DNA of 64,000 bases, taken from positions 4,301 through 68,300 of the forward strand of contig JAGOUW010000003.1 in NCBI GenBank assembly GCA_018061075.1. The letters are read 5' to 3'. Shown one piece after another: positions 11,446-64,000 of the stretch. The notes under the pieces are model-generated. The model worked only from the letters and a program-made list of their open reading frames with translations, was not told the origin of the DNA and did no database searches. Position 1 is the first letter of the stretch; each line of letters opens with the position of its first letter. A program made the position numbers and the translations under genes. This DNA comes from Candidatus Levyibacteriota bacterium. Its GTDB lineage: Bacteria; Patescibacteriota; Microgenomatia; Levybacterales; UBA12049.

Positions 11446-11469
11446 ATTCTAATTATATAACAAGAAGTT

Positions 11470-15048: not shown

Positions 15049-15052
15049 GTCT

Positions 15053-16228: not shown

Positions 16229-16234
16229 AAGATC

Positions 16235-18339: not shown

Positions 18340-18902
18340 TAATTTGCAGATATCTTATCTTTTATTTTTTCAAATGTTGCTTCGCCAACAATCTTCCTTG
18401 ATAAAAGCTCATCGATCTGTCCAAATGGCCTAGATTCAATTATACTAGCCGCGGTAACTGCACCGATTCCTGGTAAAGATTCCAGATCTGTAGCAGAAGC
18501 TGTATTTACATTCATTACTGATCCGCTAGCTTCCCCTGCGACTTCTTCCGTAAGTATCTCCTCTCCGGTTCTAGGGATATAGATCTTAAGACCGTCTGAG
18601 ACCTTTTTAGCGAGATTTATGTTCTTTTCGATCCATTGCCTATCTGCTTGCTCACTCATCCCTCCTGCTGCTGCTAGTGCGTCTACAATGCGTGATCCTT
18701 GGGAGAGCTGATAAACGCCAGGATTAATCACAGCACCCTCTATATCTACAAGAATTTTTTGCTCAGGCGATTTAGCCTGCTCAACTATCAATGCAGGCTC
18801 ATCTGGCTTTTGAAAAATATATTGAAAAACCCCAACAACAACAAGAATGAGGCCAATCCCTCCTAGGGCAAAGGGTAGTAAATTTTCTTTGATCCTGTCC
18901 AT
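18339..18902 (-). CDS. comEA: ComEA-type DNA receptor (SLBB plus helix-hairpin-helix)
   Basis: 187 aa with an N-terminal TM helix. The SLBB-like motif is GAVINPGVYQLSQGSRIVDALAAAGG. The HhH region is NVNTASATDLESLPGIGAVTAASIIESRPF. Confidence 0.85.
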   Translation of the reverse strand: MDRIKENLLPFALGGIGLILVVVGVFQYIFQKPDEPALIVEQAKSPEQKILVDIEGAVINPGVYQLSQGSRIVDALAAAGGMSEQADRQWIEKNINLAKKVSDGLKIYIPRTGEEILTEEVAGEASGSVMNVNTASATDLESLPGIGAVTAASIIESRPFGQIDELLSRKIVGEATFEKIKDKISAN

Positions 18903-18903
18903 T

Positions 18904-45100: not shown

Positions 45101-48100
45101 CCCGGAAGCGCAATTTCCTCCACCTCCTGAAATAACTCCTATAGCATTCAAGGTACCTACTATCACCTGATCTTCCTCTGAAGCATTTGTACAATCGCTA
45201 TGCTCTGCATCATCAGCAGATGCAGCTACAGCTATCTTTTTATCTGTTAAATCAGCGAAATGACGCTCATATAAAACATCAGAATCAGTAGTATCTGTTA
45301 ACAAGAAATCTATACCAACCACATCAGATGTAGCTTTTGTAACTACGGCTGAAGGATGACTAACAGTCGTATCATTATAAATATTTACTTCACTTCCCCA
45401 GTCATTCGCATTATCACAAACTCCGTTTGAAGCTACGGCGATCCCCGAACATCTTCTAAGAACTAGGTTATTTGTACCAGGATCAAGCACATATATTAGA
45501 TATACATCTGACTCATCAGAAGAAAGATTTAGTACTAAATCCGAAGCTTCAGTGACCGTAGGAAATCCAGTGTCAGTCCAGTTCGTAGATACAGAAGGAT
45601 CTTTATTATTCGCCACATTTTTAACATGCAAAACATCTGTTGTTGTATCCTCTACATATCCTATGAATAATCTATTATTTGAATAATCTACCGTGCTGCT
45701 CAAAGGAAAATTAGTATATCCGGTCCAATTACCACCTAAATCATCTAATGCTGTTATGCCGTTTCGGAAAGATGCTCCAACCGAAGCCATATTATTTTCC
45801 CATCTGCTGTCTGTTATATCGTCCCATGGTACGTATGAAATTCCTAAATCATTAGTACTATCTACTCCCCCAGAAATTATAAGAGCATTTGAATTTCTGT
45901 CATTTACGTAAACTTCTTTTATACTAACTGGTGTAGGCAGAGCGGCGCTTGGCCTTAATCTAATCCAATATAATCCACTTGTACTATCAACTGTAGTTGT
46001 AGCCCAAGTACTAGGCTGATCAAAAAGAACTGAACCGTCATTAAAAAAAGTATAGGTCCCGTTATATGTATTATCCGTTGTATTTGAAAGACTTGTCCAT
46101 GTAGTGCCATCCCAATATTCAAGTGTAGATAAAGTTGCAGCATTAGCATTATTGACATCATTAAAATCAAATGTAGCTTTAGAAAATGGCTTACTGTCAC
46201 CAATATAAATATAATCAGTTGTAGTTAAAGCACTGACATCATCAGATGTAGTTGCTGAATTATCAATTGCGCTCGATAAATCTGTAAAAACTCCATTTGA
46301 ATCTTTTTTTATACTAGTTGGACTTCTCCTAGGTTTTCCGGGTAATTGATTTAGAGTATTCTGATGAGTCGTAGTTGCTGAAACCACCAATGAAGCATCT
46401 GTGGTTCCTTTAAGAGTAGAAGACGTTGGAAGCCCGACTCCTCCATTTTTTTCCGTATCGCTAATTGTGCCTTGTGAATATTTCTCTTCGCTCGCATTTT
46501 TCCATGTGCTTCCTAAATCCCAATGACTTTCAATCTCATCTTCAGTTAACGCTCTGTTGTATATCGCAACTTCGTCAATCGAGCTATTAAAATATGCGGA
46601 ATTATCGGGTCTTCTGCCTATATCTACAGGTGAACCGTTATTCGTAGATGTGCTTGTCCAGCTCGTATCTCTTCCCACCTCAACTCCATCCACATAAAGA
46701 ATCAATGTGTCAGTTGTATCATTCATGGTAGTTACAACATGATGCCAGGTCTCTTCTGCTGGCGTTTCATTGCCTGCTGTGGCTCTCCCTGAACCCCCTG
46801 AAGTATGCACTGCTGATTGATAAAAAATTCCGTTCCCACCTCCCCCGCCCCACTGCCATTGAAATAATTGCCATTCATAGTTAGAACCTGTTCCTTTTGC
46901 GATAATGCTTCCTCCTTCAAGACTAGTTCCCAAAGTCCAAGCTTCTATCGTCAACTCACCTGTTGTTGTGATTGAATAAGCGTCATTATCAGGAATCGTT
47001 ACATATTCACTTTGCGAAACATTAAATGATGTAGCAGTGTCACTGTCACTTGCCAGTCCTCCTGTTGCAGCTAACGTAGGAGTATTCGTATAAGTTCCAT
47101 CATTATTCGTAGAAGATTCGTCGTTTGCATTTGTTCCGCTTGGCTCTCCAAGTCTCCAATATCCGACTAATCCTGAAGTACTGTCTACTGTATTAAAATA
47201 TGTCTGACCATTAACTACATCACGCGTTAAAGTTCTAATTTCTCCTCTATTTGTTCCATTCATGTTATACGAAATAACAATCTTTTCTTTACCAAGTCCA
47301 GCACCTTTATTAGCAACAATTACTGAAGGTCTTGAAGTCAAATCTGAAGTATCTATATTTTCTACAGTTCCTTGGGCTACCGCGGTAATTAAATTATTAC
47401 TATTCCTAGTAATAGTAAGTTTGGAGTATTCAAGATCAGAATCTGTGCTATTAACCAAAGCTACATGAATATTACTTGATCCATCAATATCTGCCGCAAT
47501 TCCATTTGATGTTCCAGCGCCACCATCTAAATTAATCGCTGCATCAGTCCAGCTTCCAGAATTATAATTCTTGTAATAAACGTTATCATCTCCAGTTCCA
47601 CCATCAAATACTGTTATTAAATTCCCCCATGTGTCTCTAATTATTTTCCTAGAATTTCCATAAGCAGTTCCTGTAGTTGAAGCTGCAGAATCAATTACGA
47701 CTGGATCTACGGTAACTGGATATGATGCATTATTTAGATCTCCTTCGGAAAGATTTATTGAAAGCAAATAACCCCCCGCTTGGTTCTTTGAAAGACGGTA
47801 ACTGCTTCCAATATCATTATTTTTAGTGTCTCTTGTAACAGGCTCTGGGATAGCAAACTTCGTTGCTGCTTGTCCGCCCTCTTCCATACTCCAGGCAATT
47901 TCTCCATCTGGAAATAATTCCCCTGTTAAGTTTTGACTCGCATCCTTTTCATTTCCTGAAACAAAGCTAAACTCCAGCTTATTAGCTCTAACTGCCTCTC
48001 TATTAGCTACGACATAATCAGCTTTTACACGATCACTTAGCATTTCATAACGAGCGATAATTCCCGGTGCGATTTCCCACTCTATTTTATTTCCATTTAC

Positions 48101-48649
48101 TTTAGGTTTTACAAAACCGGTTGATCCACTTGGTACATATCTCACGAAATATCCATCTTTACTTGTGATTTTTACTGAAGGAAGTAGTCCGCCCTCTACT
48201 TGTTCTCCAAAAGAAAAAACAGTTCCGGATTTAAGATTTACACTCCATTTATAATCTCCAGTTTTATTTTCTTTTAAATCTGGTCCTTTTGTGGGAGTGC
48301 TGGCAAAAACATGACTCTGTGGATCTCGATTTCTTAAAATCCAAGCTCCATCAGCAACTTCTTCGGCGTAAGGAAGATAACTTGGAGGACGAAGTTGATA
48401 AAGAATAAGAGGAATAATTAACATGACTACGCCAATTACAAATGCACGCCGTACACCTCTACTTTTATAAACTTTATGCTCGAAATGACGAATTTTATGT
48501 CTTTTATTTTCAGGAAGCCAGGAAACTAAATAGTTATGAGTGGCGACAACTGGAAAAAAGAGAATTTTTAAACTCCGTTTTAGTGGTTTCTCTATAGGTC
48601 GATATACTTTAAGCAATTTGTGCTTAAAAAAAGATAAATTCTTTTTCAT
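42158..48649 (-). CDS. giant (2163 aa) N-terminally anchored surface protein with three LamG/concanavalin-like domains and a DUF2341 domain
   Basis: The TM helix is RRAFVIGVVMLIIPLILYQL. LamG copies span about 47175-46515, 44100-43540 and 43435-42790. They carry GLVGYWRLGE(P/T)SGTNAND...WHHVV(T/V)TM...YVDG...IDEVA(I/V)Y. The DUF2341-like segment (about 44480-44140) reads KVTFDNRASAENLTNFPVLVRLDSSTIDYSKV...LRFIDSDG...LDYEIEKWD...IVWVEVPSI. The C-terminus ends with a tandem RGGTRLRGGTRLR. Confidence 0.75.
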   Translation of the reverse strand: MKKNLSFFKHKLLKVYRPIEKPLKRSLKILFFPVVATHNYLVSWLPENKRHKIRHFEHKVYKSRGVRRAFVIGVVMLIIPLILYQLRPPSYLPYAEEVADGAWILRNRDPQSHVFASTPTKGPDLKENKTGDYKWSVNLKSGTVFSFGEQVEGGLLPSVKITSKDGYFVRYVPSGSTGFVKPKVNGNKIEWEIAPGIIARYEMLSDRVKADYVVANREAVRANKLEFSFVSGNEKDASQNLTGELFPDGEIAWSMEEGGQAATKFAIPEPVTRDTKNNDIGSSYRLSKNQAGGYLLSINLSEGDLNNASYPVTVDPVVIDSAASTTGTAYGNSRKIIRDTWGNLITVFDGGTGDDNVYYKNYNSGSWTDAAINLDGGAGTSNGIAADIDGSSNIHVALVNSTDSDLEYSKLTITRNSNNLITAVAQGTVENIDTSDLTSRPSVIVANKGAGLGKEKIVISYNMNGTNRGEIRTLTRDVVNGQTYFNTVDSTSGLVGYWRLGEPSGTNANDESSTNNDGTYTNTPTLAATGGLASDSDTATSFNVSQSEYVTIPDNDAYSITTTGELTIEAWTLGTSLEGGSIIAKGTGSNYEWQLFQWQWGGGGGNGIFYQSAVHTSGGSGRATAGNETPAEETWHHVVTTMNDTTDTLILYVDGVEVGRDTSWTSTSTNNGSPVDIGRRPDNSAYFNSSIDEVAIYNRALTEDEIESHWDLGSTWKNASEEKYSQGTISDTEKNGGVGLPTSSTLKGTTDASLVVSATTTHQNTLNQLPGKPRRSPTSIKKDSNGVFTDLSSAIDNSATTSDDVSALTTTDYIYIGDSKPFSKATFDFNDVNNANAATLSTLEYWDGTTWTSLSNTTDNTYNGTYTFFNDGSVLFDQPSTWATTTVDSTSGLYWIRLRPSAALPTPVSIKEVYVNDRNSNALIISGGVDSTNDLGISYVPWDDITDSRWENNMASVGASFRNGITALDDLGGNWTGYTNFPLSSTVDYSNNRLFIGYVEDTTTDVLHVKNVANNKDPSVSTNWTDTGFPTVTEASDLVLNLSSDESDVYLIYVLDPGTNNLVLRRCSGIAVASNGVCDNANDWGSEVNIYNDTTVSHPSAVVTKATSDVVGIDFLLTDTTDSDVLYERHFADLTDKKIAVAASADDAEHSDCTNASEEDQVIVGTLNAIGVISGGGGNCASGVVDYNFGLRFPSVTVAPGAKISSAYVDLRVTERTGSTPISFTIYAEDVDSAASFNAYTNSCPSAGLSTSCVGDRTRTANSASYTIDFNGSGSTGTSYRLDVTDLIQEVICRGVADSQPCIGDYNGSGTWASGNNIALLLVSNVDSGSTNYVQFVTYDDANAVMLDPTLQINCEGSCSTSAVTSNPPSSVWCNMGSTANGASDCNGNWKSRKKVTFDNRASAENLTNFPVLVRLDSSTIDYSKVKNAAEDLRFIDSDGLTLLDYEIEKWDEGGESIVWVEVPSITTAVATDYVWMYYNNSQASAGSDDAGTWNSNFDAVWHLKENPAIICSGASEICDSTLNNADLDMFGAMTISNQVDGQIDGSMDFDGVDDEFYKVGADAGFPLGNAARTLEAWVKTTSTCGNCAIFGYGTQIDPQDYALILVNGQLNLQIRANFFSFGSTGTVNDGKWHHVAITYDGTNAEGYVDGVEVGSDQNPGTNPNTVSGAVDMGQWSNILAGKIDEVRVTDNDQSADWIEATYLNTKSDSTFVSIGAEQAQIEQQNQLTPYSTEIMGTPGLVGYWRLGETSGTNANDLSITNNDGTYTNTPTFGGQGAIVGDTNTSTSFAAASLEYVNVPDHAAYDFGTGDFSLEVWVNRAAAPGAAQFILGHSGDNNASDWELFWRGGIDGFSSRISNTTCQSGTSDISDSNWHHVVVTMDRDGLCTWYVDGQVSGTPVDISAESATDLTNTSPLYIGRRLASSYYDGPIDEVAVYKGVVLSSTQVQRHYNISRATPSVGTKNYSKGFTYTTGSGSYFDLDHPLSSAEYVGVEGNDNNYAVVSGDLNVNASTSATPTFLFKVNNPNNLNTNSINATAVVKSSVATSTRPVSLQVYRGGSTNNWVTLVSNSSSSPDTDLTLTASVTTNLTEHYFNESPGIGTRYAACTNNTANCWVYLRVIQDAPATSGNETLSLDMFDAQFTNTSQPAMRGGTRLRGGTRLR

Positions 48650-51989: not shown

Positions 51990-52478
51990 CTATACCTCAA
52001 CCTCTACATCAGCAGGTTCTGCTTCCAGAAAATTTTTAAGCCTTAATAATGTTTTTTCAAGCTCTTTTTTAGTATCTCTAGAAGCTACTGCGTTTAAAGA
52101 CAAAAGATTTGCGATCGGCCCGAGCTCTGTTTTTCTATATAATTTAACTGAAGTACCGTCTGCTTCCTCGCTAAAATAATATCCAGTTAAAACATGAAGT
52201 GAATTTGAATTATCCCTGTATTCAAAACTTTGATGCGCCATAGAGCCTGTTATCTCAAGCTCAATGCTTTTTTTCCCACCCAAAACAGTTTTAAAAATAA
52301 TATTATATTTTGCTCCGGGTCCTACTGCATCAGGATTTTCAGGATCTTTTTCAACACTTTTTACTCTGTCCCAAAAGTAAACCATATTCTCCATATGATT
52401 CACAAATGAATATACTTCGTTTATGGGAACTTTTATTTTTGTGGAAACTTCTGTTATTTGTGCCATAACCCTATTCAA
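51990..52478 (-). CDS. SRPBCC/START-like (polyketide-cyclase-type) small protein
   Basis: 162 aa. Its length and beta-rich pattern with a terminal helix (KKELEKTLLRLKNFLE) fit SRPBCC. No diagnostic motif was found. Confidence 0.4.
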   Translation of the reverse strand: MNRVMAQITEVSTKIKVPINEVYSFVNHMENMVYFWDRVKSVEKDPENPDAVGPGAKYNIIFKTVLGGKKSIELEITGSMAHQSFEYRDNSNSLHVLTGYYFSEEADGTSVKLYRKTELGPIANLLSLNAVASRDTKKELEKTLLRLKNFLEAEPADVEVEV

Positions 52479-52491
52479 TCAAATAATATGC

Positions 52492-52584
52492 AAATAAGCA
52501 AATAATTAAGTTCAAATAAATATTTAAATGATTAAATTATTAATGCATTAATTTGCTTATTTATCATCTGAGATTTGCTTATTA
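52492..52584. repeat. 12-bp motif ATTTGCTTATTT present three times: inverted at 52492-52503, direct at 52551-52562 and 11/12 direct at 52573-52584
   Basis: Read directly. AAATAAGCAAAT is the exact reverse complement of ATTTGCTTATTT. The site lies in the divergent intergenic region upstream of the HUH gene. Confidence 0.85.
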
Positions 52585-52589
52585 ACGTA

Positions 52590-52617
52590 TTGACACCTCC
52601 CTATTTATCATGATAAT
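52590..52617 (+). promoter_or_regulatory. promoter TTGACA-16-GATAAT ending 8 nt before the ATG
   Basis: TTGACA at 52590-52595, GATAAT at 52612-52617, ATG at 52626. Confidence 0.45.
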
Positions 52618-52625
52618 TTCAACTG

Positions 52626-53270
52626 ATGGCAGACCACAACCCCGTTTTCCAAAACAATAATTTTTATCACACAGTTAATTTTGGGATTGATAATAAGATT
52701 ATTTTTAATGACAAAAAAGACATTGACCGCTTTCTAGCACTTCTAGAATATTATAAAGCGAAAAATCCACCTGCTAGATTTGCATTCAGAAATAGACCAA
52801 TTGCTAGAGATTCGCAAGACAAACTGGAACCAATGGTAGAAATAGTTGCATTTTGTCTCATGCCAAACCATTTTCATTTACTCCTAAAACAAACGATGGA
52901 CAACGGTGTTAATTCTTTCATGAGTAAAGTCGCAAACAGTTATACGAAATACTACAACTCACGCCAAAAAAGAGTGGGAACTCTTTTTAAAGGACCTTTC
53001 AAGGCCCGGGAAATCAACCAGACAGATCTATCCGGAGTATCACGTCACATTCACTTAGACCCATTTATAAAAGGTTTAATAAGGTTCCTACCAAGTTTCC
53101 CATTCTCTTCATTCCCCCAATATTTAGGAGAAAAAGATGGCTTCTGTGTTAAAAATGACATCTTAAAAAACTTTTCAAATGCATCTGAATACAAAGAATA
53201 TGTTATGAATCAGGAGGATTATAAGCAAACGCTCCCCCAGATAAGTTCACTCATTCTCGAAAAAAGTTAA
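52626..53270 (+). CDS. HUH/Y1 transposase-like protein of the IS200-like / REP-associated tyrosine transposase (RAYT, COG1943) type
   Basis: 214 aa. The HUH motif lies in FCLMPNHFHLLLKQ. It is followed by YTKYYNSRQKRVGTLFKGPFKAREI and RHIHLDP...FPFSSFPQYLG, the typical RAYT order. Confidence 0.72.
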   Translation: MADHNPVFQNNNFYHTVNFGIDNKIIFNDKKDIDRFLALLEYYKAKNPPARFAFRNRPIARDSQDKLEPMVEIVAFCLMPNHFHLLLKQTMDNGVNSFMSKVANSYTKYYNSRQKRVGTLFKGPFKAREINQTDLSGVSRHIHLDPFIKGLIRFLPSFPFSSFPQYLGEKDGFCVKNDILKNFSNASEYKEYVMNQEDYKQTLPQISSLILEKS

Positions 53271-53289
53271 AAAATGTGTAAAATAAATT

Positions 53290-54081
53290 ATGAGCAATCG
53301 TTATGAAGAAGCGAACAAACTCCTCACTAAAGCAAGCAAACTTAACGTAAATGGATTTCCGGAAAAGTCAATCAAGGTTTATCTAGAAGCTGCCAAACTC
53401 ACACCCAAAAACCCAAATATCTACGCAGGACTTGGCACAGCTTTTTCGAGGCTTGAGAAGTGGGATGAAGCAATAACATCATATAAAAAGGCACTCTCAA
53501 TCGATCCTACGTTTTCGGACGCAGCTTATGATCTGGCGGTTTTATTTCAAAGCTTAGATAGACTGAAGGAATCTTTTGAGTATTTTAAACTTGTAATCAA
53601 ACTTTATCCCTCACATACAGATGCATATATGGGTTTAGCACAGATATCCTCCTCTCTAGGAAAAGTCGCAACTTCCATAAAAGCATATGAAAAAGTACTT
53701 TTGCTTAATCCTACAAACACAGAAATAAGACAAGAAATCGCCTCACTTTCTATGAGAAATAAAGATTTTGCTAGGGCTGAAATATATTATAAAACCGTGC
53801 TTGAGTTGACTCCAAATGACGCACGTGTCCTCACAAATCTTGCAATAATTTACAAAGAACAGGGAAATTTAGCTAAATCAGCGCAAACTTTAAAAAAAGC
53901 TATAAAAATAAATCCTGATTTAGCTCACCTGCACTATACCCTGGCAGTCATTTACCGCGAAATGAATAAGCCTACCCTAGCATTAAAACAACTTAATATT
54001 GCATACAAAATTGACCCTAGCTTAAAGGAAGAGACAATTCCCCTGCGAATTAACAAAAAGCCTAAAAAACTCCATAATTAA
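53290..54081 (+). CDS. tetratricopeptide-repeat protein
   Basis: 263 aa with about 6 TPR units, for example WDEAITSYKKALSIDPTFSDAAYDLAVLF and NLAKSAQTLKKAIKINPDLAHLHYTLAVIY. Confidence 0.8.
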   Translation: MSNRYEEANKLLTKASKLNVNGFPEKSIKVYLEAAKLTPKNPNIYAGLGTAFSRLEKWDEAITSYKKALSIDPTFSDAAYDLAVLFQSLDRLKESFEYFKLVIKLYPSHTDAYMGLAQISSSLGKVATSIKAYEKVLLLNPTNTEIRQEIASLSMRNKDFARAEIYYKTVLELTPNDARVLTNLAIIYKEQGNLAKSAQTLKKAIKINPDLAHLHYTLAVIYREMNKPTLALKQLNIAYKIDPSLKEETIPLRINKKPKKLHN

Positions 54082-54092
54082 ACTTACAACAC

Positions 54093-54121
54093 TTGAGTGA
54101 ATCCCAAATTAAATTTATACT
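54093..54121 (+). promoter_or_regulatory. promoter TTGAGT-17-TATACT ending 7 nt before the ATG
   Basis: TTGAGT at 54093-54098, TATACT at 54116-54121, ATG at 54129. Confidence 0.5.
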
Positions 54122-54128
54122 AGTCTAA

Positions 54129-57100
54129 ATGGCAACAATAACAACAGACACATATCTTGACGGAGGCGTTGCTAGATCCGCAGGCGAAGCATGGACCATA
54201 AACTCAGGCGCGATATTCACAATAAGAACTGATACTAGATGGCACGCAAATGCACCAGCCTCTATGACCGGAACTCTTGGCGCTCAAACATGCAATGAAG
54301 GAGAAATCATCTATGACGGCAGGAATATTAGGTGGCTCCCTTTTGACACAGGCTCCGGAAACGTTCCTGCAATTGGCACAGATATTACTCAGGGAGGGGT
54401 AACATCAAGTTATCTTTTAGGAGTATACGCAAATTATACCTCGGCACCCACTGCAGTTGGCAATGCAATGCCTGCAAGCGGATTTATTAAATTCAGAGAA
54501 GTTGATGGATCTTTTACAACTGGCGCATTAACTGGAATAGGCGCAAGCGCCACAGGACCCGATGTTACGGGTTGGATAGAAATAGTTGCGGATGATGCAA
54601 CTACTATCACTCTCCCCCGCTTAGGAAGCCATACTATTCGAGGTGATTGGTTTTATCTCGATGATACTGATGGTACTGTAGGTCAAGTAATCCAAATTCC
54701 TACAAACGGGGGTGGTGCAAATACTTATTGTCCAGGTCTATGGATTGAAAACAGCACTCCAAACGCTGCTACTTACACATGGTCAGTAAATATAGTTACA
54801 GTTACATTAACATCCCATGGATACAAAGTCGGACAAACCATCGAAATTGATTTCACTTCCGGTGCAGGCACACCAAACGGCGCATATGAAATAACAACTG
54901 TAGCTTCAGCAAATGAATTTACTTTTGCATTAACTGGATCAGGAACTAGCGGTAACTGCACTATAACGTCATTTGAATATTGGCCTTCATTAAATGGCGC
55001 AACTAATGGCTGGGCAAGACAACACATAGGCGGCCCTTACACCAGCACTGATGTCAGGCAAAATTTTGTAAAAAGTATAGGATCAGGTCAAATTCAGATT
55101 GGCGAGGCTTCAGATTTATCTGCTACATATGCTAATGTTGCAGCACAATCAGGAACATATGTTTCAATAAATCACACATCTACTTATACCTGGGCAGATG
55201 ACATAGTTACCGTTACATATACAACCGGACACCTTCTCACAACAGGCCAGCAGGTAGGTCTTGATTTTACCTCGGGAGACGCAACAGCAGACGGCAATTA
55301 TACTATTACTGTCATCGATGCATACACTTACACTGTTCCCCTTGCTGGAAGTGGCACGGGTGGAAATGTCACTGCAAGACCTGGATATACCATAACATTT
55401 ACGGCCCACGCGCTAGGAGTTGGAGACACCGTTTACTGTGATTTTACAACCGGCGGCGGAGTGGATGGCGAATATACAATTTATGCTGTGACAAGCGCCA
55501 ATGCATATCTTATAGAAGCTCCGCTAACCACAGCACAAACAAGCGCAAACGTTTCAGTTTACTCAAGGTATGCTATTTCTTTTACGGCACATGCACTTGC
55601 TTTAGGAAACCGAGTCTACCTAGATTTTACAACAGGCGCCGGAGTTGATGGTATTTATACTATCGTTGCAATACCCGATGCAAATACTTTTCATGTCGTA
55701 GCAAATAATGGGGCTTCTGCCGACTCCGGAAATGTAACAGTTAAACAAACCATTGGGAATATTCCTGCTTCAGGACTACGAACTAGAATTCCAAATGTTT
55801 TCCTGAGAGGATGCACTACTGCAGCTAGAGCATCAAACAATGTCCATGCAACAATTGCATCACGCGCTGAATGGGCCACTACAACAGCAGGTGCACTTGA
55901 CTTAGAATATGCTTACTCCACCTGGTATCACAACTACGCCCAAGCGTTCTCAGTAAAGCTTCATAACGGTGCTTACCTAGATTCTTTAATCATCACAGAG
56001 TGTGCATCAGCGCTTGACATAAATAATTTTAACTCAAGCATGCATGGTGGACTTGATGCAGTTACCCTAACATTAACTTCAAATTTTGCAGGTGGAAATA
56101 TAAAAAACTCAAAGTTCAAAAGAGGTAATACTCCCGGCAGTAATGATCACTGCATAAGCATTTCATTCTGCGCTAACATTACATTCAGCTTTATTGAAGC
56201 TGCCATTATTCAATATGCAAGAGGCTCAGGTAAATCCATAACTATGACCTCAAGTCTAAATCTGACATTTAATAACTGTCGAATTTTTACAAGTGATTTT
56301 CCTGTCATATCCTCTTTTGGAATTAGAGTTAATGACCTCGATATAGTGGATAGAAACATTGGATATACAAATGTTACTTCTGCATATTATTCTATAAATA
56401 TTACTGCGATGAGCGATGACATCGTAGTCGATGGCATTACCTACGGATACGAAGGTTTAATCCCAAATGTACACTCAGCTGCTGGTGTACTTGTATGCTC
56501 AGCCTCCTCGGATATAGTCATAAGAAATGTGGGCTCACATTCGAATAGAATAAGCGGAGGGTCGTGGAGACCAAATCTATATGGCATGGCTGTTGTATTT
56601 GTATCCGGCGGAAATAACAACAACATAAAACTTCAGAGAGTTTACTTAGATAAAAACAGAACGGGAGTAATTACTACAATTAACTCAGATAAGAATATGA
56701 CCTATGAATCTGTCATGGGAACTAGATACGTATATAGCGCAATGGCAACCTATCTTCAAATCGACGCAGGTCTTAATTCAAATATGAAAGGCTTTGGAGC
56801 TGGAGCAAATACAGTTACCGGACAATCATCTGTCTACGGAACACATTTCAGGGATCTATTCTTGGGAGATACCTCGGGAAGATTGGTCCTTGCGATGAAC
56901 GAATCAACCTCAGAAACAGAAAATTACTTCACGATGGTAAGTGGTACAGAAAAATTCAACTCCGCTGGTGGAATACTCATGGGCGTAATTGGCGATCAAG
57001 CTATTTGGGAGGACAGTGTTTTTCGATTAGGCCATACTGGATTTGCAAATGTAACACCAACAATGTCCGGCGGAACAATCGGAAACTACACAGTTGAGTA

Positions 57101-57785
57101 CCAAATTGATTCGGGCTCTGGATTCAGCGGTTCATGGGCTACAGCTACAGGCGCAAACCTATCTGCCGAATCCATAAGTCCATCTGGATTCAAAATGAAA
57201 GTTAGAATAACTACTACCTCAACTAATGCGACAGCTATTACCTATCTTAGATTCGATACGATTTCAAGCTCAAGTGCACAAGCTGATAATCTCTATACGC
57301 TTGATACAGCGACTATTACCTTAACTAACTTAATACCCGGCTCAAGATATGAAATCTACAACACTTCGTCTTCCACAACTATCACGAACGCAATTGCTGC
57401 TGCCAGTACTGCTACCATTACTGCATCCGCTTCGAATGGCGACAACCTTCGCATTCGAATTAGAAAATCCATAGATACTACTCAGGCGTCCACATACACA
57501 TGGTCTGCAAGTGTAGTTGAGGTCACTTTTGCTTCACATGGCCGATATGTCGGCGAGCCCGTGGATCTCGAATTCACATCAGGAGATGGAATGGGGCAAG
57601 ACGGAATCTATACTATAGCCTCTGTTCCCTCCTCATCCACATATACCGTTTCAGTCTCAGGATCAGGTACTGGAGGAAATGTTAGCGCGACACCTGTCAA
57701 ATACCTGCCTATTGAAACCGGAGCTATTATAGATAATCTTTCTGCAAGTGCTTATATTTCTCAGATAGAAGATATCATTGCATAA
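54129..57785 (+). CDS. large (1218 aa) beta-helix/tailspike-like protein with no signal peptide and five copies of a roughly 60-aa module
   Basis: Module copies start at 54774, 55185, 55386, 55569 and 57495. The pattern is YTW..(I/V)VTVT...HG...G..V.(L/I)DFT(S/T)G.G..G.YTI..V.....(F/Y)T......G(S/T)GGN(V/C)(T/S). The central region (about 55800-56700) has beta-helix-like rungs (NIKNSKFKRGN, CISISFCANITFSFIEA, LNLTFNNCRIF). No N-terminal hydrophobic segment is present. Confidence 0.65.
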   Translation: MATITTDTYLDGGVARSAGEAWTINSGAIFTIRTDTRWHANAPASMTGTLGAQTCNEGEIIYDGRNIRWLPFDTGSGNVPAIGTDITQGGVTSSYLLGVYANYTSAPTAVGNAMPASGFIKFREVDGSFTTGALTGIGASATGPDVTGWIEIVADDATTITLPRLGSHTIRGDWFYLDDTDGTVGQVIQIPTNGGGANTYCPGLWIENSTPNAATYTWSVNIVTVTLTSHGYKVGQTIEIDFTSGAGTPNGAYEITTVASANEFTFALTGSGTSGNCTITSFEYWPSLNGATNGWARQHIGGPYTSTDVRQNFVKSIGSGQIQIGEASDLSATYANVAAQSGTYVSINHTSTYTWADDIVTVTYTTGHLLTTGQQVGLDFTSGDATADGNYTITVIDAYTYTVPLAGSGTGGNVTARPGYTITFTAHALGVGDTVYCDFTTGGGVDGEYTIYAVTSANAYLIEAPLTTAQTSANVSVYSRYAISFTAHALALGNRVYLDFTTGAGVDGIYTIVAIPDANTFHVVANNGASADSGNVTVKQTIGNIPASGLRTRIPNVFLRGCTTAARASNNVHATIASRAEWATTTAGALDLEYAYSTWYHNYAQAFSVKLHNGAYLDSLIITECASALDINNFNSSMHGGLDAVTLTLTSNFAGGNIKNSKFKRGNTPGSNDHCISISFCANITFSFIEAAIIQYARGSGKSITMTSSLNLTFNNCRIFTSDFPVISSFGIRVNDLDIVDRNIGYTNVTSAYYSINITAMSDDIVVDGITYGYEGLIPNVHSAAGVLVCSASSDIVIRNVGSHSNRISGGSWRPNLYGMAVVFVSGGNNNNIKLQRVYLDKNRTGVITTINSDKNMTYESVMGTRYVYSAMATYLQIDAGLNSNMKGFGAGANTVTGQSSVYGTHFRDLFLGDTSGRLVLAMNESTSETENYFTMVSGTEKFNSAGGILMGVIGDQAIWEDSVFRLGHTGFANVTPTMSGGTIGNYTVEYQIDSGSGFSGSWATATGANLSAESISPSGFKMKVRITTTSTNATAITYLRFDTISSSSAQADNLYTLDTATITLTNLIPGSRYEIYNTSSSTTITNAIAAASTATITASASNGDNLRIRIRKSIDTTQASTYTWSASVVEVTFASHGRYVGEPVDLEFTSGDGMGQDGIYTIASVPSSSTYTVSVSGSGTGGNVSATPVKYLPIETGAIIDNLSASAYISQIEDIIA

Positions 57786-57790
57786 TATAT

Positions 57791-58174
57791 TTAATTCTTC
57801 TCAACCGCAGATCTTATTTTTTTTACTAAATCACTAAGAGATAGCTCACTTTTTAAAATATAATCATTTGCTCCCATTTCTTTAGCTTTTACAATATACT
57901 GCTCTTGACCTAAATTTGTAGCTACGAATACATGTATTTTTGATAATTTCTTGTCTTTTTTAAGCTCTTTTAGCACCTCGAAGCCATTCTTAACAGGCAT
58001 TACCAAATCCAAAATAATTACATCTGGAATAAAAGTTTTTAGAATTTCAAGCGCTTCTTCCCCATTAAATGCAAATTTACAGATAAATCCTTCGCTTTCA
58101 AACTTTGCTTGATAAGCGCCTGAAATGAATTTATCATCCTCAACTACCAATACAGATATCTTTGAAGTACTCAT
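57791..58174 (-). CDS. stand-alone receiver-domain response regulator (CheY-like)
   Basis: 127 aa. It has VLVVEDDKF, a phospho-acceptor in DVIILDLVMP and the K in ILKSE. Confidence 0.85.
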   Translation of the reverse strand: MSTSKISVLVVEDDKFISGAYQAKFESEGFICKFAFNGEEALEILKTFIPDVIILDLVMPVKNGFEVLKELKKDKKLSKIHVFVATNLGQEQYIVKAKEMGANDYILKSELSLSDLVKKIRSAVEKN

Positions 58175-58184
58175 AAAAGAGAAA

Positions 58185-58574
58185 TTAGAGTTCGTTTTTT
58201 ATTTCGTGAATTCTATTTACTAAATCCTTTAATGAAAGCCTACTTTTAACTACATATTCGTCAACATTTAAATCACGGGCTTTTAGGATATTATTCTCTC
58301 CTTCAAGATTTGTGGCCATAATCACTGGAATATCAGCCCATTTTTTGTTTTTTTGAATTTTTTTTAGAACACTGAATCCATCGCTTCTAGGCATCAGGAT
58401 ATCAAGAATAATAACATCTGGAGTATATTTTTTAAGTAAATCTATAGCCTCTACGCCATCATGAGCAAATTTTACCTTAAATCCCTCACTCTCAAATTTG
58501 GCTTGATATGCTCTGGAAATAAATTTATCATCTTCAACAGCCAAAACACGGATTGATCTTGAGGTCATATACAT
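58185..58574 (-). CDS. stand-alone receiver-domain response regulator (CheY-like), paralogue of 57791-58174
   Basis: 129 aa. It has VLAVEDDKFISRAYQAKFESEGF and DVIILDILMP. By eye it is about half identical to its neighbour. Confidence 0.85.
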   Translation of the reverse strand: MYMTSRSIRVLAVEDDKFISRAYQAKFESEGFKVKFAHDGVEAIDLLKKYTPDVIILDILMPRSDGFSVLKKIQKNKKWADIPVIMATNLEGENNILKARDLNVDEYVVKSRLSLKDLVNRIHEIKNEL

Positions 58575-58601
58575 AAAATTACCATAATTTTTTAAATAGA
58601 T

Positions 58602-60278
58602 CTAGGACTTAAAAATTGGCAGACTAATTTTAAAAGTAGTACCTTTATTCTTTTGGCTTGTAAAACTAATAAAGCCCCCGCATTCCTTCACTATACTTTT
58701 TGTAATATAAAGTCCTAACCCATTCCCCTCTATGTCCCTACTCTCAATATTATTTCCTCGATAGAACTTCTGGAACACTCTTTTTTTTTCATTTACAGAA
58801 ATCCCATATCCAAAATCAATCACTTTTATAATTACAAAAACCTCTTTATTTGTGATATTTACATTCAATTTTCCGTCTACTGGAGAATATTTAACAGCAT
58901 TATCTATTAGATTTAAAAAAGCTTGAGAAATAAATTTAGGGTCTAAATAAACTTTACCTTTAAATGTGTTTGAGTATGTCAATTTAATCTTTTTAGAATT
59001 AATTTTGGGCTTTAGATCCTCAATTACATGAGTTAAAATTTCATCCAAATCGATAATTTGAGGATTCATATTTAGCTTCCCTAGTTCGATTTTTGAAACA
59101 TCCAATAATGCATTCACAAGCCCAATCATTCTTTCGTTTGATTCGTTAATATTCTTTACGATTTCAGTTTGTTTTTTGTTTAATTTTCCAAAACTTTCAT
59201 CTAACATCAGCTCCAAAAACATTTTCATACCTGACAACGGAGTACGCAATTGATGCGAAGCAGTGGATACGAATTCTGTTTTCTGTATATCCAGATTCCG
59301 CAAAACCTCAACCTCCTTTACTAAAAAGAGATTGCCTATCTTCCATGAAATTAAAATAACAAGTCCCGATGTAATGAGTAAAAAAACTAAACTTAACACC
59401 AGTGCTTTGTTTGCATCCTGAAAAATTAAATCATATGGAATACCAACTATCACATTGGCATTTAACTCTTCAGCTTCTGCCAATCGATTCAGGGCATACA
59501 ATCTTCTCACGCCATCAACTCCTCTAACGTCAGCTGTGGTGGCATCTTCGCTTAAAGCTATTAATGACTCATCAGGAAATCTTCTGCCTACCCATTTTTC
59601 AGATTCACTACTTCTAGCAAGAATTGTTCCATTTCTATCAAGAAGTGAAAATATACTTCCCTTTTCCAGACTACTGCTTGAAATAAACTCATTTACCCAG
59701 GATAAATCCAATGAAGAAAAAACTACTCCCGTTATCAAACCATCAGAATTAGTTATGGGATGACCAAAATTTAGCACCGGTTTTTTAGAAATCTGGCCTA
59801 TTTGAAACTCCCCTACGGCAAATTTTTTCCCTGAATATGCTTTCTTAAAAAATTCCCTATTCTTTACATTTACAATTTCAGCGCTTGTTACCGAACTACA
59901 TATAACATTTCCATTTATATCAGCGACTCCAAAATTTGCATATCTTTTATAATTTAAAATTAGCTCGCTTAAATATGTATTACATGAACTTGCGTCCAGA
60001 TTCTTAATCGGAGCTGTAGAAGAAAGACTAATTAAAAGCTGTCTTGCTCCCTCAACAGTTTGACTTTGTTCAGCAGAAAAAGTATTTGTGACTTGCCTTA
60101 GATGATTCAATGAACCGTCCTTCGCGGATTTGTATTGGTTAATTATATTTAAGGAAATAATAATTATAGAAGGGATAATTATTATTAATATTAATAATCC
60201 TAGCTTAATTCGGATGTCTAGAATTTCATTCTTTAACTTTTGAAAAGATTTAAATCTTTGCATAAAACTTACGGCCAT
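58602..60278 (-). CDS. sensor histidine kinase with an extracytoplasmic Cache-like sensor between two TM helices
   Basis: 558 aa. TM1 is LGLLILIIIIPSIIIISLNII. The sensor contains VADINGNVICSS...REFFKKAYSGKKFAVGEF...VLNFGHPI. TM2 is ALVLSLVFLLITSGLVILISW. The H-box is VSTASHQLRTPLSG, followed by N and G boxes. Confidence 0.85.
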   Translation of the reverse strand: MAVSFMQRFKSFQKLKNEILDIRIKLGLLILIIIIPSIIIISLNIINQYKSAKDGSLNHLRQVTNTFSAEQSQTVEGARQLLISLSSTAPIKNLDASSCNTYLSELILNYKRYANFGVADINGNVICSSVTSAEIVNVKNREFFKKAYSGKKFAVGEFQIGQISKKPVLNFGHPITNSDGLITGVVFSSLDLSWVNEFISSSSLEKGSIFSLLDRNGTILARSSESEKWVGRRFPDESLIALSEDATTADVRGVDGVRRLYALNRLAEAEELNANVIVGIPYDLIFQDANKALVLSLVFLLITSGLVILISWKIGNLFLVKEVEVLRNLDIQKTEFVSTASHQLRTPLSGMKMFLELMLDESFGKLNKKQTEIVKNINESNERMIGLVNALLDVSKIELGKLNMNPQIIDLDEILTHVIEDLKPKINSKKIKLTYSNTFKGKVYLDPKFISQAFLNLIDNAVKYSPVDGKLNVNITNKEVFVIIKVIDFGYGISVNEKKRVFQKFYRGNNIESRDIEGNGLGLYITKSIVKECGGFISFTSQKNKGTTFKISLPIFKS

Positions 60279-60492
60279 AATAGACTAAATTTAAGACATG
60301 TTCAAGATTAACAGCGCTTTGTATATTATTTATCATGCTAGGGAAATATACCGTTTTTACCCTTAAATATCATTGACTTTTATGACTCTAAAAGGATAAA
60401 TTAGATATAATATGTCTTCATACCAGGGTATTAAGATCCCCTATCTATTTAGTGTTAAAAATCTCGGCAATTCCCTGGAGGATCTCATCTAA

Positions 60493-63400
60493 ATGGCCAG
60501 CATAACAGTCGACAGAAGCATAAATGCTGACGATGCCTTTGCAATGTCAGCAGGAATTGCCTTCGTTGCTCTTCCATCAGGATCAGCAACTTATCAAACC
60601 CAAGCAACTGGAATCACTACCTGGGTAACTGCCACAATTGTTCAGTCCTCTGCATGGCAGGCTGTTTGTTATGGAAATAATCTAGTGGTGGCTGTAAGCT
60701 CTACTTCAGGCACAATTGCTGCTTCTTCTCCCGCAGGAGCCACTACTACATGGACTCTTAGAACCATGCCTGCGACAGCCTCGTGGTACGCAGTCAAATA
60801 TGGCCTCGATAAATTTGTAGCCACTGCAGGAGGAGGCTCAACTGAAGGAGCATATTCTCCGGACGGTGCTAAATGGACATCCACTGGAGCACTGCCAGTA
60901 AGTGGCGACTGGAGAGCTTTAGAATTTGGAGGATCACGCTTTGTAACTGTTTCATATGGAAGCACTGACTCTGCATATTCTACGAATGGCACAACCTGGA
61001 CTGCAGGAGGAGCACTTCCCGCAGCGAGGAACTGGACCGACATGGTTTATGGTGAAAGTACGTTTGTGGCTATAGCATCAGGCACGGATAAGGGTGCATA
61101 TTCCACAGACGGAGGTGTCAGCTGGAATGAAATGACTATGCCCTCTTCCACCAACTGGCGATCAATTACCTATGGAAACGGTACTTTTGTAGCTGTAAGC
61201 AATACTTCAGGAACTATCGCTGCATCATCCCCTGATGGAATTACCTGGACTCCAAGAACCCTACCAGCAACTGCCGCCTGGGTGGGAGTTGCTTTTGGTA
61301 ATAATCTTTTTACCGCTGTCTCGACTTCCTCAACCAATGCAGCTACAAGTCCTGATGGATTCAATTGGGATGCTATTGCTCAGCTTTCACAGGCTGTCTC
61401 CTGTATCGCCTACACTCCTACCACGTGGAATTCAAACGACACACTCGTTATCACTAATAACGCAACAGTAACTGTAAATACTGACCAGAAGAAATTCTGG
61501 AATGCGATAACTCTTACAAACGGAAAACTTCACATCACTAATAACTCAACCAGTACAGGAATCCGCTTTACCATGGGACGCGTTACTGGTGCTGCACAAG
61601 CGGCCATCACGCCTGGATCAGGAATTGGAGATATAGAAATAACCGGAAATTGGATAGAGCTAGGTACGGGTGACGGAAGTTCAAATCAAACCATGACTGC
61701 CCCATTTACTGACTACATTCCTTGTCTTTGGGTAGAAACAGCATCGGGGTCTGGAGTATATAAAGTTTGGTTAAATATTACGAGCGCATACGGCGACACG
61801 CCTCCGATGGTTAAAAATGGCCTTGCAGCAGTCAGTAAAGATGAAAGGGGTAATTTTTTTGTTCAACAGGAAGCATCTGCGCCATACGGTCCTACTATCA
61901 TTAATTGCACAGATGGAAGTCGCGCCCAAAGACTCCTAACCGTTACCTCAACAACTGGGCTTTTTGCTGGAGCATCAGTTTTAAGTGTTTCCGGAATTCC
62001 GGTAAACACAGTAGTTAATCGTGTAGTTTCTTCTACCCAAATTGAAATTAATAATCAGACAACTACGGAAATTTCGCCAGACTGGTCAGGTGTCGCATAT
62101 GGAAATAGCACTTATGTCGCCATTTCAAAAGGATATTCAAATATAGCGGCCACCTCCTCTGATGGAGCAACCTGGACAAAAAGAACGCTTCCTTTTGTAG
62201 CTGACTGGACATCAATCACTTATGGATCTACCAGCGGACTATTTGTGGCAGTTGCTGCACACGGTGTTTACGGGACAGGATATTGCGCTACTTCAACTGA
62301 TGGAATTACCTGGACTCAGCGAGCAATGCCTGCCGTACAAAGCTGGACTTCAGTAGCAACAAACGGAACAAGTTATGTCGCTGTCGGAAGTACTGCGGCT
62401 GATGCTGCTACTACTATTGGCGCATACTCAGCAGACGGAATTACCTGGACAGCCTCCACCATGACTTCCGCAATCTGGCGCTCAGTCACTTACGGAGCAG
62501 GTGCTGCAAATAGATATGTGGCTGTCTCCTCTACTACACTTTCTAACTGGGACGCAGATGGAACAGGCACATGGACAAATGGAGGCGCAATGACTTCAGC
62601 TAATTATTTAAGTATTGCTTGGAACGGTACACGGTTTTATGCAGTATCCGGTTCAAGCACTGTATCAATGTATTCAACTAACGCTGTAGCTTGGACTACT
62701 GGCGCAGTGCTTGCAAACACTACAAGCAGAGGTGTCGCTTGGGATGGAACAAATTTTGTCATAGTCTCAACCACCAACTCTGTAAATACATCTCGAACAC
62801 CTGACGGAAGCACTGCAGTAACTAACACCACTATGGCAGCTGCAAATGCAAATAACTGGTGGGCCATCTGCGCAAATGGCTCCACATTAGTAGCTGTTTC
62901 AAGCTCTTCAAACTTAAGAAGCGCAGCTATGACCTCTACAGATTCCGGAGCCAATTGGACACTTCAGACAGGAACTCCGATGGATGTTTCGCTTACTTGC
63001 TTTAATCCGTATGTCTCTCAGTTAACAAATACCGTGGAATTTGGAGATAACATAAATGGTAATAAAGTACCAACTGGTGCAAAAGTAAGATGTCCAAATA
63101 TCATGTTTACTGCAGACACTCCCGCAAACATACAAACCTCTTCACGACTAGTAGGAGCAAATATGGTCATGAGCAATGGAGGTGCACTTACAGCCTCTAT
63201 CTGTCTTTTTGATGAATCATACAACTCATTTCTCCAGGCAGAGTCTGTATCGCTTACAAATGTCGGATTCTCACTTCCTCCCCTGCTTCAAGAGTGCTAC
63301 GGAGTAAATTTAAATAGCGTAGGATTTGCACTGGAACCCGTAAGAAGGTACTACCAATTTTCAGCTACCGTGGGCGCAAATGGATGGTTTAGTAGGGATT

Positions 63401-64000
63401 CTAGAGGCGGCGCAGGATCTACAAATGCCTGGAACTACATCAACGATGCAACAATTAATGATCTGAATATGGCCATCGGCCAACCTTTTGCCTATGTCCT
63501 CTCATCTGGAGCCGGTACTGTCTCCGCTCCTAACGCAGCGCTCTATGTTACGAATACTGAAAACTCTACCTGGACAAATATCCGCTTTTTTGGAATTTTA
63601 GTCGTTAGAAATTTTCAGGCAGCACTCAGCCTTACCTCACTTTTTAATAATAACACCATTACGAATCTTGAATCTTATGCCCTCTCGCCTTTTTTCCTAG
63701 GTGTTTCAAATGAAAACACAATCACAAACATTACTTATTCTGAGGATATGTTTAATGGATATAGAAATTTCACAACTGCAGCTAGAATCGGAATTGATCC
63801 AATTGCCGGAGCACATCTCCTAGATGACACTAAATACTATCTAAAGATCCGTACCTTCAAAGACTGGACTGATAGATCTTCAGCTTCATACACAGAAAGT
63901 CGTGTTTATTCTGCAACTCCTTATTTAGGATATAAATATCATCCTCAGTCTTTTTCAGCATATAATAGCGGTCCGAGAGCTGTTACACTTACCTGGGTCA
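60493..64000 (+). CDS. large (>1169 aa, 3-prime end outside the window) protein with two Asp-box-type beta-propellers and a beta-helix-like core; paralogue of 54129-57785
   Basis: Absent from the ORF track (open at the window edge). I translated 60493-61440 and 62041-63000 codon by codon without stops and read the remainder less rigorously. No other plus-strand ORF is listed across these 3.5 kb. It starts MASITVDRSINADD behind a GGAGGA SD. There are six blades at about 60655-61380 and seven at about 62083-62965. The blade pattern is W..(V/I).YG...FVAV......A.S.DG.(T/S)W. Confidence 0.7.
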   Translation, partial: MASITVDRSINADDAFAMSAGIAFVALPSGSATYQTQATGITTWVTATIVQSSAWQAVCYGNNLVVAVSSTSGTIAASSPAGATTTWTLRTMPATASWYAVKYGLDKFVATAGGGSTEGAYSPDGAKWTSTGALPVSGDWRALEFGGSRFVTVSYGSTDSAYSTNGTTWTAGGALPAARNWTDMVYGESTFVAIASGTDKGAYSTDGGVSWNEMTMPSSTNWRSITYGNGTFVAVSNTSGTIAASSPDGITWTPRTLPATAAWVGVAFGNNLFTAVSTSSTNAATSPDGFNWDAIAQLSQAVSCIAYTPTTWNSNDTLVITNNATVTVNTDQKKFWNAITLTNGKLHITNNSTSTGIRFTMGRVTGAAQAAITPGSGIGDIEITGNWIELGTGDGSSNQTMTAPFTDYIPCLWVETASGSGVYKVWLNITSAYGDTPPMVKNGLAAVSKDERGNFFVQQEASAPYGPTIINCTDGSRAQRLLTVTSTTGLFAGASVLSVSGIPVNTVVNRVVSSTQIEINNQTTTEISPDWSGVAYGNSTYVAISKGYSNIAATSSDGATWTKRTLPFVADWTSITYGSTSGLFVAVAAHGVYGTGYCATSTDGITWTQRAMPAVQSWTSVATNGTSYVAVGSTAADAATTIGAYSADGITWTASTMTSAIWRSVTYGAGAANRYVAVSSTTLSNWDADGTGTWTNGGAMTSANYLSIAWNGTRFYAVSGSSTVSMYSTNAVAWTTGAVLANTTSRGVAWDGTNFVIVSTTNSVNTSRTPDGSTAVTNTTMAAANANNWWAICANGSTLVAVSSSSNLRSAAMTSTDSGANWTLQTGTPMDVSLTCFNPYVSQLTNTVEFGDNINGNKVPTGAKVRCPNIMFTADTPANIQTSSRLVGANMVMSNGGALTASICLFDESYNSFLQAESVSLTNVGFSLPPLLQECYGVNLNSVGFALEPVRRYYQFSATVGANGWFSRDSRGGAGSTNAWNYINDATINDLNMAIGQPFAYVLSSGAGTVSAPNAALYVTNTENSTWTNIRFFGILVVRNFQAALSLTSLFNNNTITNLESYALSPFFLGVSNENTITNITYSEDMFNGYRNFTTAARIGIDPIAGAHLLDDTKYYLKIRTFKDWTDRSSASYTESRVYSATPYLGYKYHPQSFSAYNSGPRAVTLTWV

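Follow-up and report, generated by a model that had tools for sequence, protein, structure and literature searches.

A chromosomal pair of phage receptor-binding-family genes flanking a sensor kinase in a Candidatus Levyibacteriota genome

Why would the chromosome of a bacterium with a reduced genome carry two very large genes of phage tailspike type, arranged around a sensor kinase? The question is raised by a stretch of 64,000 nucleotides (here called the window) from a Candidatus Levyibacteriota bacterium (GenBank assembly GCA_018061075.1, contig JAGOUW010000003.1, positions 4,301 to 68,300 of the forward strand). Near its end lie the genes for protein A (54129-57785, + strand; 1218 aa from the open reading frame [ORF] listing and translation) and protein B (from 60493 to the window end at 64000, + strand; 1169 codons inside the window). 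Between them, on the opposite strand, are two receiver-only response regulators, one of 127 aa (57791-58174, - strand; Pfam Response_reg, E 2.6e-23, without an output domain) and one of 129 aa (58185-58574, - strand; Response_reg, E 2.5e-23), and a membrane sensor histidine kinase of 558 aa (58602-60278, - strand). A hypothetical protein recorded at NCBI for a Candidatus Levybacteria metagenome-assembled genome has the same sequence as protein A (100% identity). An initial annotation, made from the letters alone, had described these ORFs and their layout, which the ORF listing, translation, and Pfam bear out, and had read A and B as possible cellular recognition or adhesion proteins. We find that A and B are members of a large, unannotated family of phage virion-module proteins, and we hold their identity as members of a phage receptor-binding family with high confidence. 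That both genes are intact, adjoin a sensor kinase, and have no further phage genes in their surroundings suggests viral host-recognition hardware in the cell's own use.

The phage origin of the family is evident from the positions of the homologues. Protein A has more than 800 homologues, nearly all of them unnamed, and a scan of IMG/VR shows that at least 372 loci encode relatives. One homologue lies between the portal and prohead protease genes of a T4-like contig of 175 kb (L006; loci used for comparison are cited by L numbers), others are in phage contigs of 184 to 188 kb, and another closes the structural module of a complete 39.6-kb siphovirus; a homologue of the B family sits beside the capsid gene in a 221-kb phage contig (L013). 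Because the homologues are found mainly in phage virion modules, we consider the phage origin of the family settled, and the earlier view of cellular proteins that follow a phage-like logic does not survive the presence of relatives in T4-like, jumbo, and siphovirus genomes. The homologues thus mostly occupy virion modules, whereas the window copies stand among cellular genes, next to the kinase and receivers. Among all the window ORFs, A and B are the only ones with clear homologues in viral loci, and no homologue of the kinase, the receivers, or the Y1 and TPR proteins encoded upstream of A was found there. Annotation resources are nearly silent on the family: PHROGs returned nothing for the phage homologues of A and B, and the annotated phages in INPHARED gave a single match, an unnamed protein. 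We note that the T4-like contig L006 was deposited as Candidatus Dojkabacteria and the jumbo-phage contig L013 as 'Patescibacteria group bacterium', both likely binning artefacts.

The part of protein A that is best conserved among phages is its N terminus. Residues 1-210 (54129-54758, + strand) form a module with which 538 cluster representatives, 844 to 2063 aa long, begin (at their residues 1 to ~210; 212 of them match at E<=1e-30), and the median identity of window A to the viral copies is 60% in this module versus 34 to 38% in the others. A conserved N terminus joined to an exchangeable remainder, first seen in the two window proteins, is thus supported in the wider family, and it is the arrangement classically seen in receptor-binding proteins, an anchor with distal parts that can be swapped. 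By analogy with known tailspikes, we infer that the module is a tail-docking anchor. It is followed by four small HG..G beta-barrel modules and a linker domain (residues 212-540; 54762-55748, + strand), a right-handed beta-helix core (residues ~545-985; 55761-57083, + strand), and a C-terminal beta-sandwich region (residues 986-1218; 57084-57785, + strand) that has a fifth HG module inserted. A hidden Markov model (HMM) built from the HG modules finds all five of the copies originally reported, at residues 215-279, 352-416, 421-477, 482-538, and 1122-1187.

The fold of A was examined in AlphaFold2 models, which are monomers, and by Foldseek. The model has a pLDDT of 86 and a pTM of 0.84, with low confidence in the last ~90 residues, and in the helix core short strands follow one another regularly, most of it at pLDDT >90. 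Its closest matches in the PDB are Klebsiella phage depolymerases, the tailspikes of phi297, HK620, Sf6, and CBA120, and GH87/GH110 enzymes, with tailspikes and depolymerases matched at E values down to 1e-6 and probabilities of 0.99 to 1.0; among predicted viral structures (BFVD), the matches are tail fibres, tailspikes, and pectate-lyase proteins. The model therefore has the right-handed parallel, pectate-lyase-like beta-helix of tailspikes and depolymerases, as had been proposed for A. Sequence libraries do not report this relationship, with no matches for A in Pfam, PHROGs, or a PDB sequence-profile search, and nothing meaningful in NCBIfam.

The helix could be read differently, as a cellular glycan hydrolase or lyase, autolysin-like, that remodels the cell's own envelope while the kinase and receivers sense the state of that envelope. 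The matches to depolymerases and to GH87/GH110 are what such an enzyme would give, and in the helix many acidic residues vary little or not at all among family members. However, no catalytic site has been mapped and the protein has no export signal, and retention of the N-terminal module and the exchange of alleles with phages described below would both go unexplained. We regard an envelope-remodelling enzyme as quite improbable.

Protein B is larger than it first appeared. It is cut by the end of the window, and its true length is ~2270 aa because full-length orthologues in two related contigs (L001 and L012), through which alone B was completed, are 2274 aa; the start at 60493 holds, but the size of ~1170 aa initially given does not. 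In B the N-terminal module is split (residues ~1-30 and ~300-430), and there are two Asp-box beta-propellers (residues ~30-300, with 6 blades, and ~520-835, with 7 blades) and a beta-helix starting from residue ~850. The initial annotation had recognized both propellers, and indeed the SxDGxxW Asp-box blade motifs count to 6 and 7, and an AlphaFold2 model of B (pLDDT 82) is matched by Foldseek to tandem propellers such as those of LRP6, megalin, and GH74. The inserts of A and B differ, again as proposed: the HMM of the HG modules of A finds no significant copy in B or in its full-length orthologue, and B is thus without significantly similar HG modules. The full-length B orthologues have no match in Pfam, and B has none in PHROGs.

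The kinship of A and B had been suggested from their N termini (MATITTD and MASITVD), a segment with a W motif, and the segment that enters the helix, and all of these are present. Inside the window the similarity is marginal by BLASTP (A residues 165-218 with B residues 378-426, E 0.005; A residues 543-772 with B residues 856-1082, E 0.025), yet the segments come in the same order, the W-motif region and then the helix entry. The relationship becomes firm with the full-length B orthologue and with profiles: A residues 900-1217 align with residues 1940-2272 of the L001 orthologue of B at 29% identity (E 3e-17), profile-profile comparison of A with the B family by hhalign gives a probability of 99.7% (E 4e-27), and the region of B at residues 300-520 matches many A-family N termini with E values down to 1e-10. 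The region common to A and the B family is clearest in A residues 986-1218. Judged on these alignments, A and B are real, albeit distant, paralogues.

The combination of an Asp-box propeller, a small beta-barrel domain, and a spike is also seen in the K1F-type phage endosialidase, and an endosialidase relationship was considered and rejected. The End_beta_barrel domain (PF12195) scores only 22.6 bits at A residues 482-538 against a cut-off of 35, Pfam finds no other endosialidase domain (sialidase or Peptidase_S74 chaperone), and the propellers of B match generic tandem propellers.

In phages, the A-like gene often has a companion. A conserved gene of ~450 aa adjoins the A-like gene in 41 of the 77 IMG/VR loci that were fetched, mostly directly downstream, and it stands beside an A- or B-like gene in five very different phages (L006, 13442-14797; L005, 14115-15542; L010, 13268-14635; L013, 15435-16760; and L009, 22564-23967). 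Its product has no Pfam or PHROG match and is labelled 'structural protein' in MW202577. Other viral loci carry a second fibre-like family, of a 624-aa type, which likewise has no Pfam match.

If A and B are of phage origin, are they simply the edge of a prophage? There are no phage structural genes in the 52 kb upstream of the cassette (window 1-52600), as the initial annotation had also found, no integrase, capsid, terminase, portal, or tail genes either in this segment or in the flanks of L001, L004, L012, and L095, and no sheath, tube, baseplate, or capsid cluster within the window. For this genome these negatives cover the sequence up to B, inside which the window stops; a prophage might lie further downstream, although the available sequence of L001 and L012 shows none. 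The remainder of the window is ordinary chromosome, with genes for glycosyltransferases, MreB, a sortase, NDK, ArgRS, LeuRS, ComEC/ComEA, Rho, an M23 peptidase, a second kinase/receiver pair, and giant LamG and TPR proteins.

The cassette is also not peculiar to this genome. Besides the window, five contig sets (L001, L002/L003, L012, L091, and L004) carry A, the two receivers, the kinase, and B, in this order apart from a rearrangement in L004, so that the unit with its embedded kinase, noted initially in a single genome, is conserved as far as Candidatus Shapirobacteria. L003 is the closest relative, with A 89% identical, and L001 is a syntenic contig whose A orthologue is 79% identical; in L012, B is followed by a third fibre-like gene, and ATP synthase is encoded close by. 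In the rearranged Shapirobacteria version (L004), the A-like gene is grouped with a fibre-like gene of 624 aa, two receivers, the kinase, and a gene for a B-like protein of 1705 aa. The kinase is 62% identical to that of L012, 54% to that of L001, and 38% to that of L004. Orthologues of the first receiver (57791-58174) are at the same position in L001, L002, L012, L091, and L004, and the second (58185-58574) is conserved in the cassette. Because these cassettes come from independent assemblies, a chimeric assembly is unlikely. Searches for cassettes seeded on the kinase sensor domain added little: a metagenome scan gave one more cassette and one irrelevant high-GC locus, and of four matches in a protein search the two that were looked up are short cassette fragments. 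We note that the Levybacteria-like cassette contigs L002/L003 are in a genome labelled as an uncultured Gammaproteobacteria, likely a binning artefact, and that in L003 (2568-9832) an insertion of ~7 kb separates A from the TPR gene and encodes another kinase, larger than the first at 843 aa, as well as a receiver.

Conservation of the slot is coupled with turnover of its contents. The dN/dS of A relative to L003/L002 is 0.047 in the N-terminal half and 0.043 in the C-terminal half, at dS of 1.1 to 1.3, comparable to 0.055 for the neighbouring receiver, and we judge from these sequence comparisons that A is under strong purifying selection. The beta-helix of window A is 62% identical to that of phage L011 versus 45% to that of cellular L012, the best helix matches of L012 and L004 are both viral (L039 at 51% and L048 at 59%, respectively), and cell-to-cell identity is only 39 to 45%. 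Cellular and viral copies are interspersed in a neighbour-joining tree of the anchor. Since each cellular A allele is, domain by domain, closer to phage alleles than to the other cellular ones, the alleles have been exchanged with phages, which also departs from the earlier reading of A as a cellular protein. Relationships inside the cassette conflict with one another as well, with A closer to L001 (79%, versus 54% to L012) and B closer to L012 (84%, versus 71% to L001), as is the kinase. By these comparisons, the cassette slot is stable and the A allele is replaced from the phage gene pool. A foreign origin by composition was considered and rejected; the third-position GC of A (0.31) and B (0.33) is host-like and within the range of housekeeping genes, and their higher GC comes from codon position 2, reflecting amino acid composition.

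How might such proteins act? Export signals were judged by hydropathy and motifs. Neither A nor B has a Sec or Tat signal or a segment of transmembrane (TM) grade, unlike the kinase and the neighbouring small membrane proteins; over the first 60 residues, 19-residue hydropathy peaks at 0.61 in A and at 1.33 in B, compared to 3.05 for the TM segment of the kinase at about residue 28. There is no LPXTG motif at the C terminus of A. The initial annotation had correctly seen no Sec signal peptide or TM helix in either protein, and its proposal of an adhesin role with export by an unknown route finds no support in this profile.

That proposal nonetheless deserves to be weighed in its fuller form, in which phage-derived spikes have become cell-surface adhesins with which an episymbiont binds, recognizes, or digests the glycans of its partner, exported unconventionally and with the kinase and receivers sensing contact. 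These bacteria are thought to attach to hosts via large surface proteins (PMC11310336), and a 2163-aa surface-type LamG protein is encoded nearby. The glycan-enzyme or receptor-binding folds of A and B, their purifying selection and conservation in reduced genomes, and the presence of TatC/TatA genes no more than ~7 kb away from the L004 and L095 islands are all in keeping with it. However, A and B have none of the Sec/Tat signals, TM segments, or sorting motifs that neighbouring membrane proteins clearly have, their N terminus begins exactly as in the phage copies, and an adhesin leaves unexplained why the phage-type N-terminal module should be the best conserved. The islands show no protein that bears a twin-arginine signal, and no Tat genes were detected in the window. 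We consider a surface adhesin unlikely. Export by Tat hitch-hiking, an idea raised by the Tat genes near the L004 and L095 islands, was rejected as there is no twin-arginine partner to be seen in the islands. The L095 island abuts a TatC/TatA/TatA cluster, and the TatC-like gene in L004 (5104-5802) is ~5 kb from the island.

We favour a reading in which A and B, as chromosomal members of a modular family of tailspikes and fibres, have been domesticated by the cell as a receptor-binding module of phage descent, although we put the chances of this at about even. With no Sec/Tat signal and no TM segment, A and B would be made in the cytoplasm, where they would probably assemble into trimeric spikes able to bind or cleave glycans. 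Because the phage-type N-terminal module has been kept and is the best-conserved part, and because there is no export signal, the most likely of their possible fates would be that they still dock on a phage-type tail or baseplate; docking on phage-type particles is in itself a tentative proposal that we hold to be somewhat doubtful. The particle could be a domesticated one encoded elsewhere in the genome, comparable to the ectopic receptor-binding loci of gene transfer agents (GTAs) and tailocins. Alternatively, it could belong to an infecting phage that A and B would arm or poison. In either case, A and B would reach the outside only on cell lysis. The adjacent kinase and receivers may couple the production or use of A and B to an extracellular cue, a suggestion whose sole basis is their conserved adjacency.

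The signalling genes themselves do not form a classical two-component system. The kinase is complete, with a TM segment, an extracytoplasmic dCache_1 domain, and HisKA and HATPase_c domains (Pfam), and both of its partners are receiver-only; together they resemble CheY-type or phosphorelay signalling. Models of defence systems in PADLOC match the kinase, receivers, and TPR protein only through generic HATPase, receiver, and TPR domains, and do not match A, B, or the Y1 protein at all. A promoter and terminator scan of 52400-60600 gave counts no better than those of shuffled sequences.

Several observations weigh against domestication and the proposed mechanism. No tail, baseplate, or capsid gene is seen in any cellular locus, and the particle on which A and B would dock is thus hypothetical; the ~450-aa partner of the phage copies is also absent from the cellular cassettes. 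Viral carriers of the family span 32 to 68% GC, and the family is thus not specific to phages of these bacteria, and the anchor tree, which intersperses cellular and viral copies, is a neighbour-joining tree without support values. The receivers, being without DNA-binding output, would exert no direct control of transcription, and because they lack output domains any regulation would proceed through protein-protein interaction or a phosphorelay. Three further contigs carry partial or kinase-less variants of the cassette. The kinase is truncated in L093, and only a dCache fragment is left of it in L094; L095, a chromosomal contig with SHMT, PGM, and TsaD genes, has no kinase, and its B-like gene is split by two frameshifts. 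In L001, B is followed by what remains of a third fibre-like gene, 93 aa in length. From this decay in L001, L093, L094, and L095 it follows that the island is not universally maintained and that the link to the kinase is not obligatory. Regulation of A and B by the embedded sensor, as suggested earlier, is not implied by the cassette: the receivers lack output, and the kinase can be truncated or absent.

The same signs of decay could mean that the locus is a decaying prophage remnant, or a passive reservoir of tail fibre genes without function that is re-seeded by phage recombination. The mosaic gene relationships and the proximity of the cellular alleles to phage alleles fit such a reservoir, as do the further phage-module genes in L095, including a weakly glucosaminidase-like one. 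It is harder to reconcile with ORFs of 933 to 2274 aa that are intact in the window and the five other contig sets, with a dN/dS of ~0.045 along the whole of A, and with the persistence of the same kinase/receiver gene order in Shapirobacteria at 38% kinase identity. Moreover, the receptor-binding module alone is retained, with no capsid, terminase, or integrase gene in any cellular locus, and the codon-position GC is host-like. We think a functionless remnant still less likely than a surface adhesin, and that A and B are probably retained for a cellular function and are not junk. The additional phage-module genes of the L095 island (5940-20839) encode proteins of 319 aa, of 703 aa (fibre-like, sharing 70 to 74% identity with viral relatives), of 187 aa (with 65% identity to a viral neighbour), and of 341 aa (with the weak glucosaminidase match).

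Genes for phage receptor-binding proteins that are kept by cells are already known from tailocins, gene transfer agents, and cryptic prophages. The closest parallel in fold is with the phage tailspikes and depolymerases (P22, HK620, Sf6, CBA120 TSP2, phi297 gp61, Klebsiella phage K64-1 S2-4, and the K1 lyase), which share the beta-helix core, a conserved N-terminal module with variable distal parts, and the absence of a signal peptide. They differ in having no detectable sequence relationship to A and B (PDB profile search, Pfam, and PHROGs being empty), and A and B add inserted HG barrels or tandem Asp-box propellers, respectively; the window copies, furthermore, are chromosomal, beside a two-component system, and without other phage genes.

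Orphan side-tail-fibre genes in the cryptic prophages of Escherichia coli K-12 are able to recombine with infecting phages, and their mosaic relation to phage alleles is similar to that of A. They lie, however, in recognizable defective prophages and are not conserved as a unit across distant lineages, in contrast to the strong purifying selection and fixed kinase linkage of the cassette. RcGTA is under cellular phosphorelay control, and its TspA, head spikes, and tail fibres, like tailocin fibres, are phage derived, kept by the cell, without export signals, and released by lysis. Unlike these, no structural cluster has been seen for the present organism and its receivers are without output; the likeness is one of description and not of sequence. 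In RcGTA, the receptor-binding genes lie apart from the principal structural cluster and can evolve at a higher rate (bioRxiv 10.64898/2026.07.19.739414). For action on an infecting phage, there are Tab (PMC10884400) and Tai (PMC11364771), through which the host or a prophage interferes, within the cytoplasm, with the assembly of an invader's tails, and they provide a conceptual precedent only, set beside A and B by description; interference by A and B is purely hypothetical.

Carrying the argument further, Microgenomates may have domesticated a stand-alone spike/fibre island of two to three genes, wired it to a kinase and receivers, and refreshed it with phage alleles, for use either in recognition or digestion of the partner surface by an episymbiont or in a new kind of immunity, with look-alike spikes that are incorporated into the progeny virions of infecting phages and disable them. 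This is speculative, and we would not expect it to hold in full. Literature searches turned up no stand-alone receptor-binding island with a kinase and receivers in reduced Microgenomates genomes. The genomes of the candidate phyla radiation (CPR) are tiny, and yet >1% of coding capacity is given here to intact phage-type spike genes outside a prophage. Should A and B have a cellular role, they would show clearly that an ultra-small symbiont can reuse viral host-recognition hardware, and they could bear on partner attachment or phage resistance in these organisms. Independently of this, a large phage receptor-binding family without database annotation is now defined by at least 372 viral loci, 538 cluster representatives, its N-terminal module, and its ~450-aa partner; it is of use in annotating phage genomes from the environment and in connecting phages with their hosts, and phage contigs binned into Patescibacteria genomes have been flagged along the way.

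Upstream of A are two further genes. The first (52626-53270, + strand) codes for a Y1/HUH (IS200-like) protein (Pfam Y1_Tnp, E 3.9e-7) in which the HFH motif and the Tyr helix are visible. Its initial description as a REP-associated tyrosine transposase (RAYT) holds at the Y1/HUH level only, with Pfam Y1_Tnp at 30.7 bits against a cut-off of 23 and NCBIfam REP_Tyr_transpos at 33.9 against 80. It is upstream of A in four contigs (the window; L001, 8449-9090; L003, 1106-1750; and L012, 8793-9425), with 46 to 73% identity across L001, L003, and L012, and is absent from L004 and the viral loci. Because its position is kept in these four contigs, it resembles a fixed gene in single copy more than an active transposase. 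The second gene (53290-54081, + strand) codes for a 263-aa TPR protein (Pfam TPR) that is present in L001 and L003 and replaced by a 143-aa gene in L012; it is probably a neighbour and not part of the unit.

Elsewhere in the window there is no CRISPR array that would link phages to this host. The second receiver-only regulator and histidine kinase pair (14650-16228, + strand) is also without a DNA-binding output domain. A 2940-aa ORF (24916-33738, + strand) is recognizable only by its N-terminal phage-integrase SAM-like domains (Phage_int_SAM_1, E 1.7e-18; SAM_4; and SAM_5), with no catalytic integrase domain detected and the other ~2700 residues without assignment. The 2163-aa LamG protein (42158-48649, - strand) has three Laminin_G_3/ConA-like domains and a DUF2341 domain, typical of the giant surface proteins of these bacteria, and has one weak match, to an ORF in the viral locus L033.

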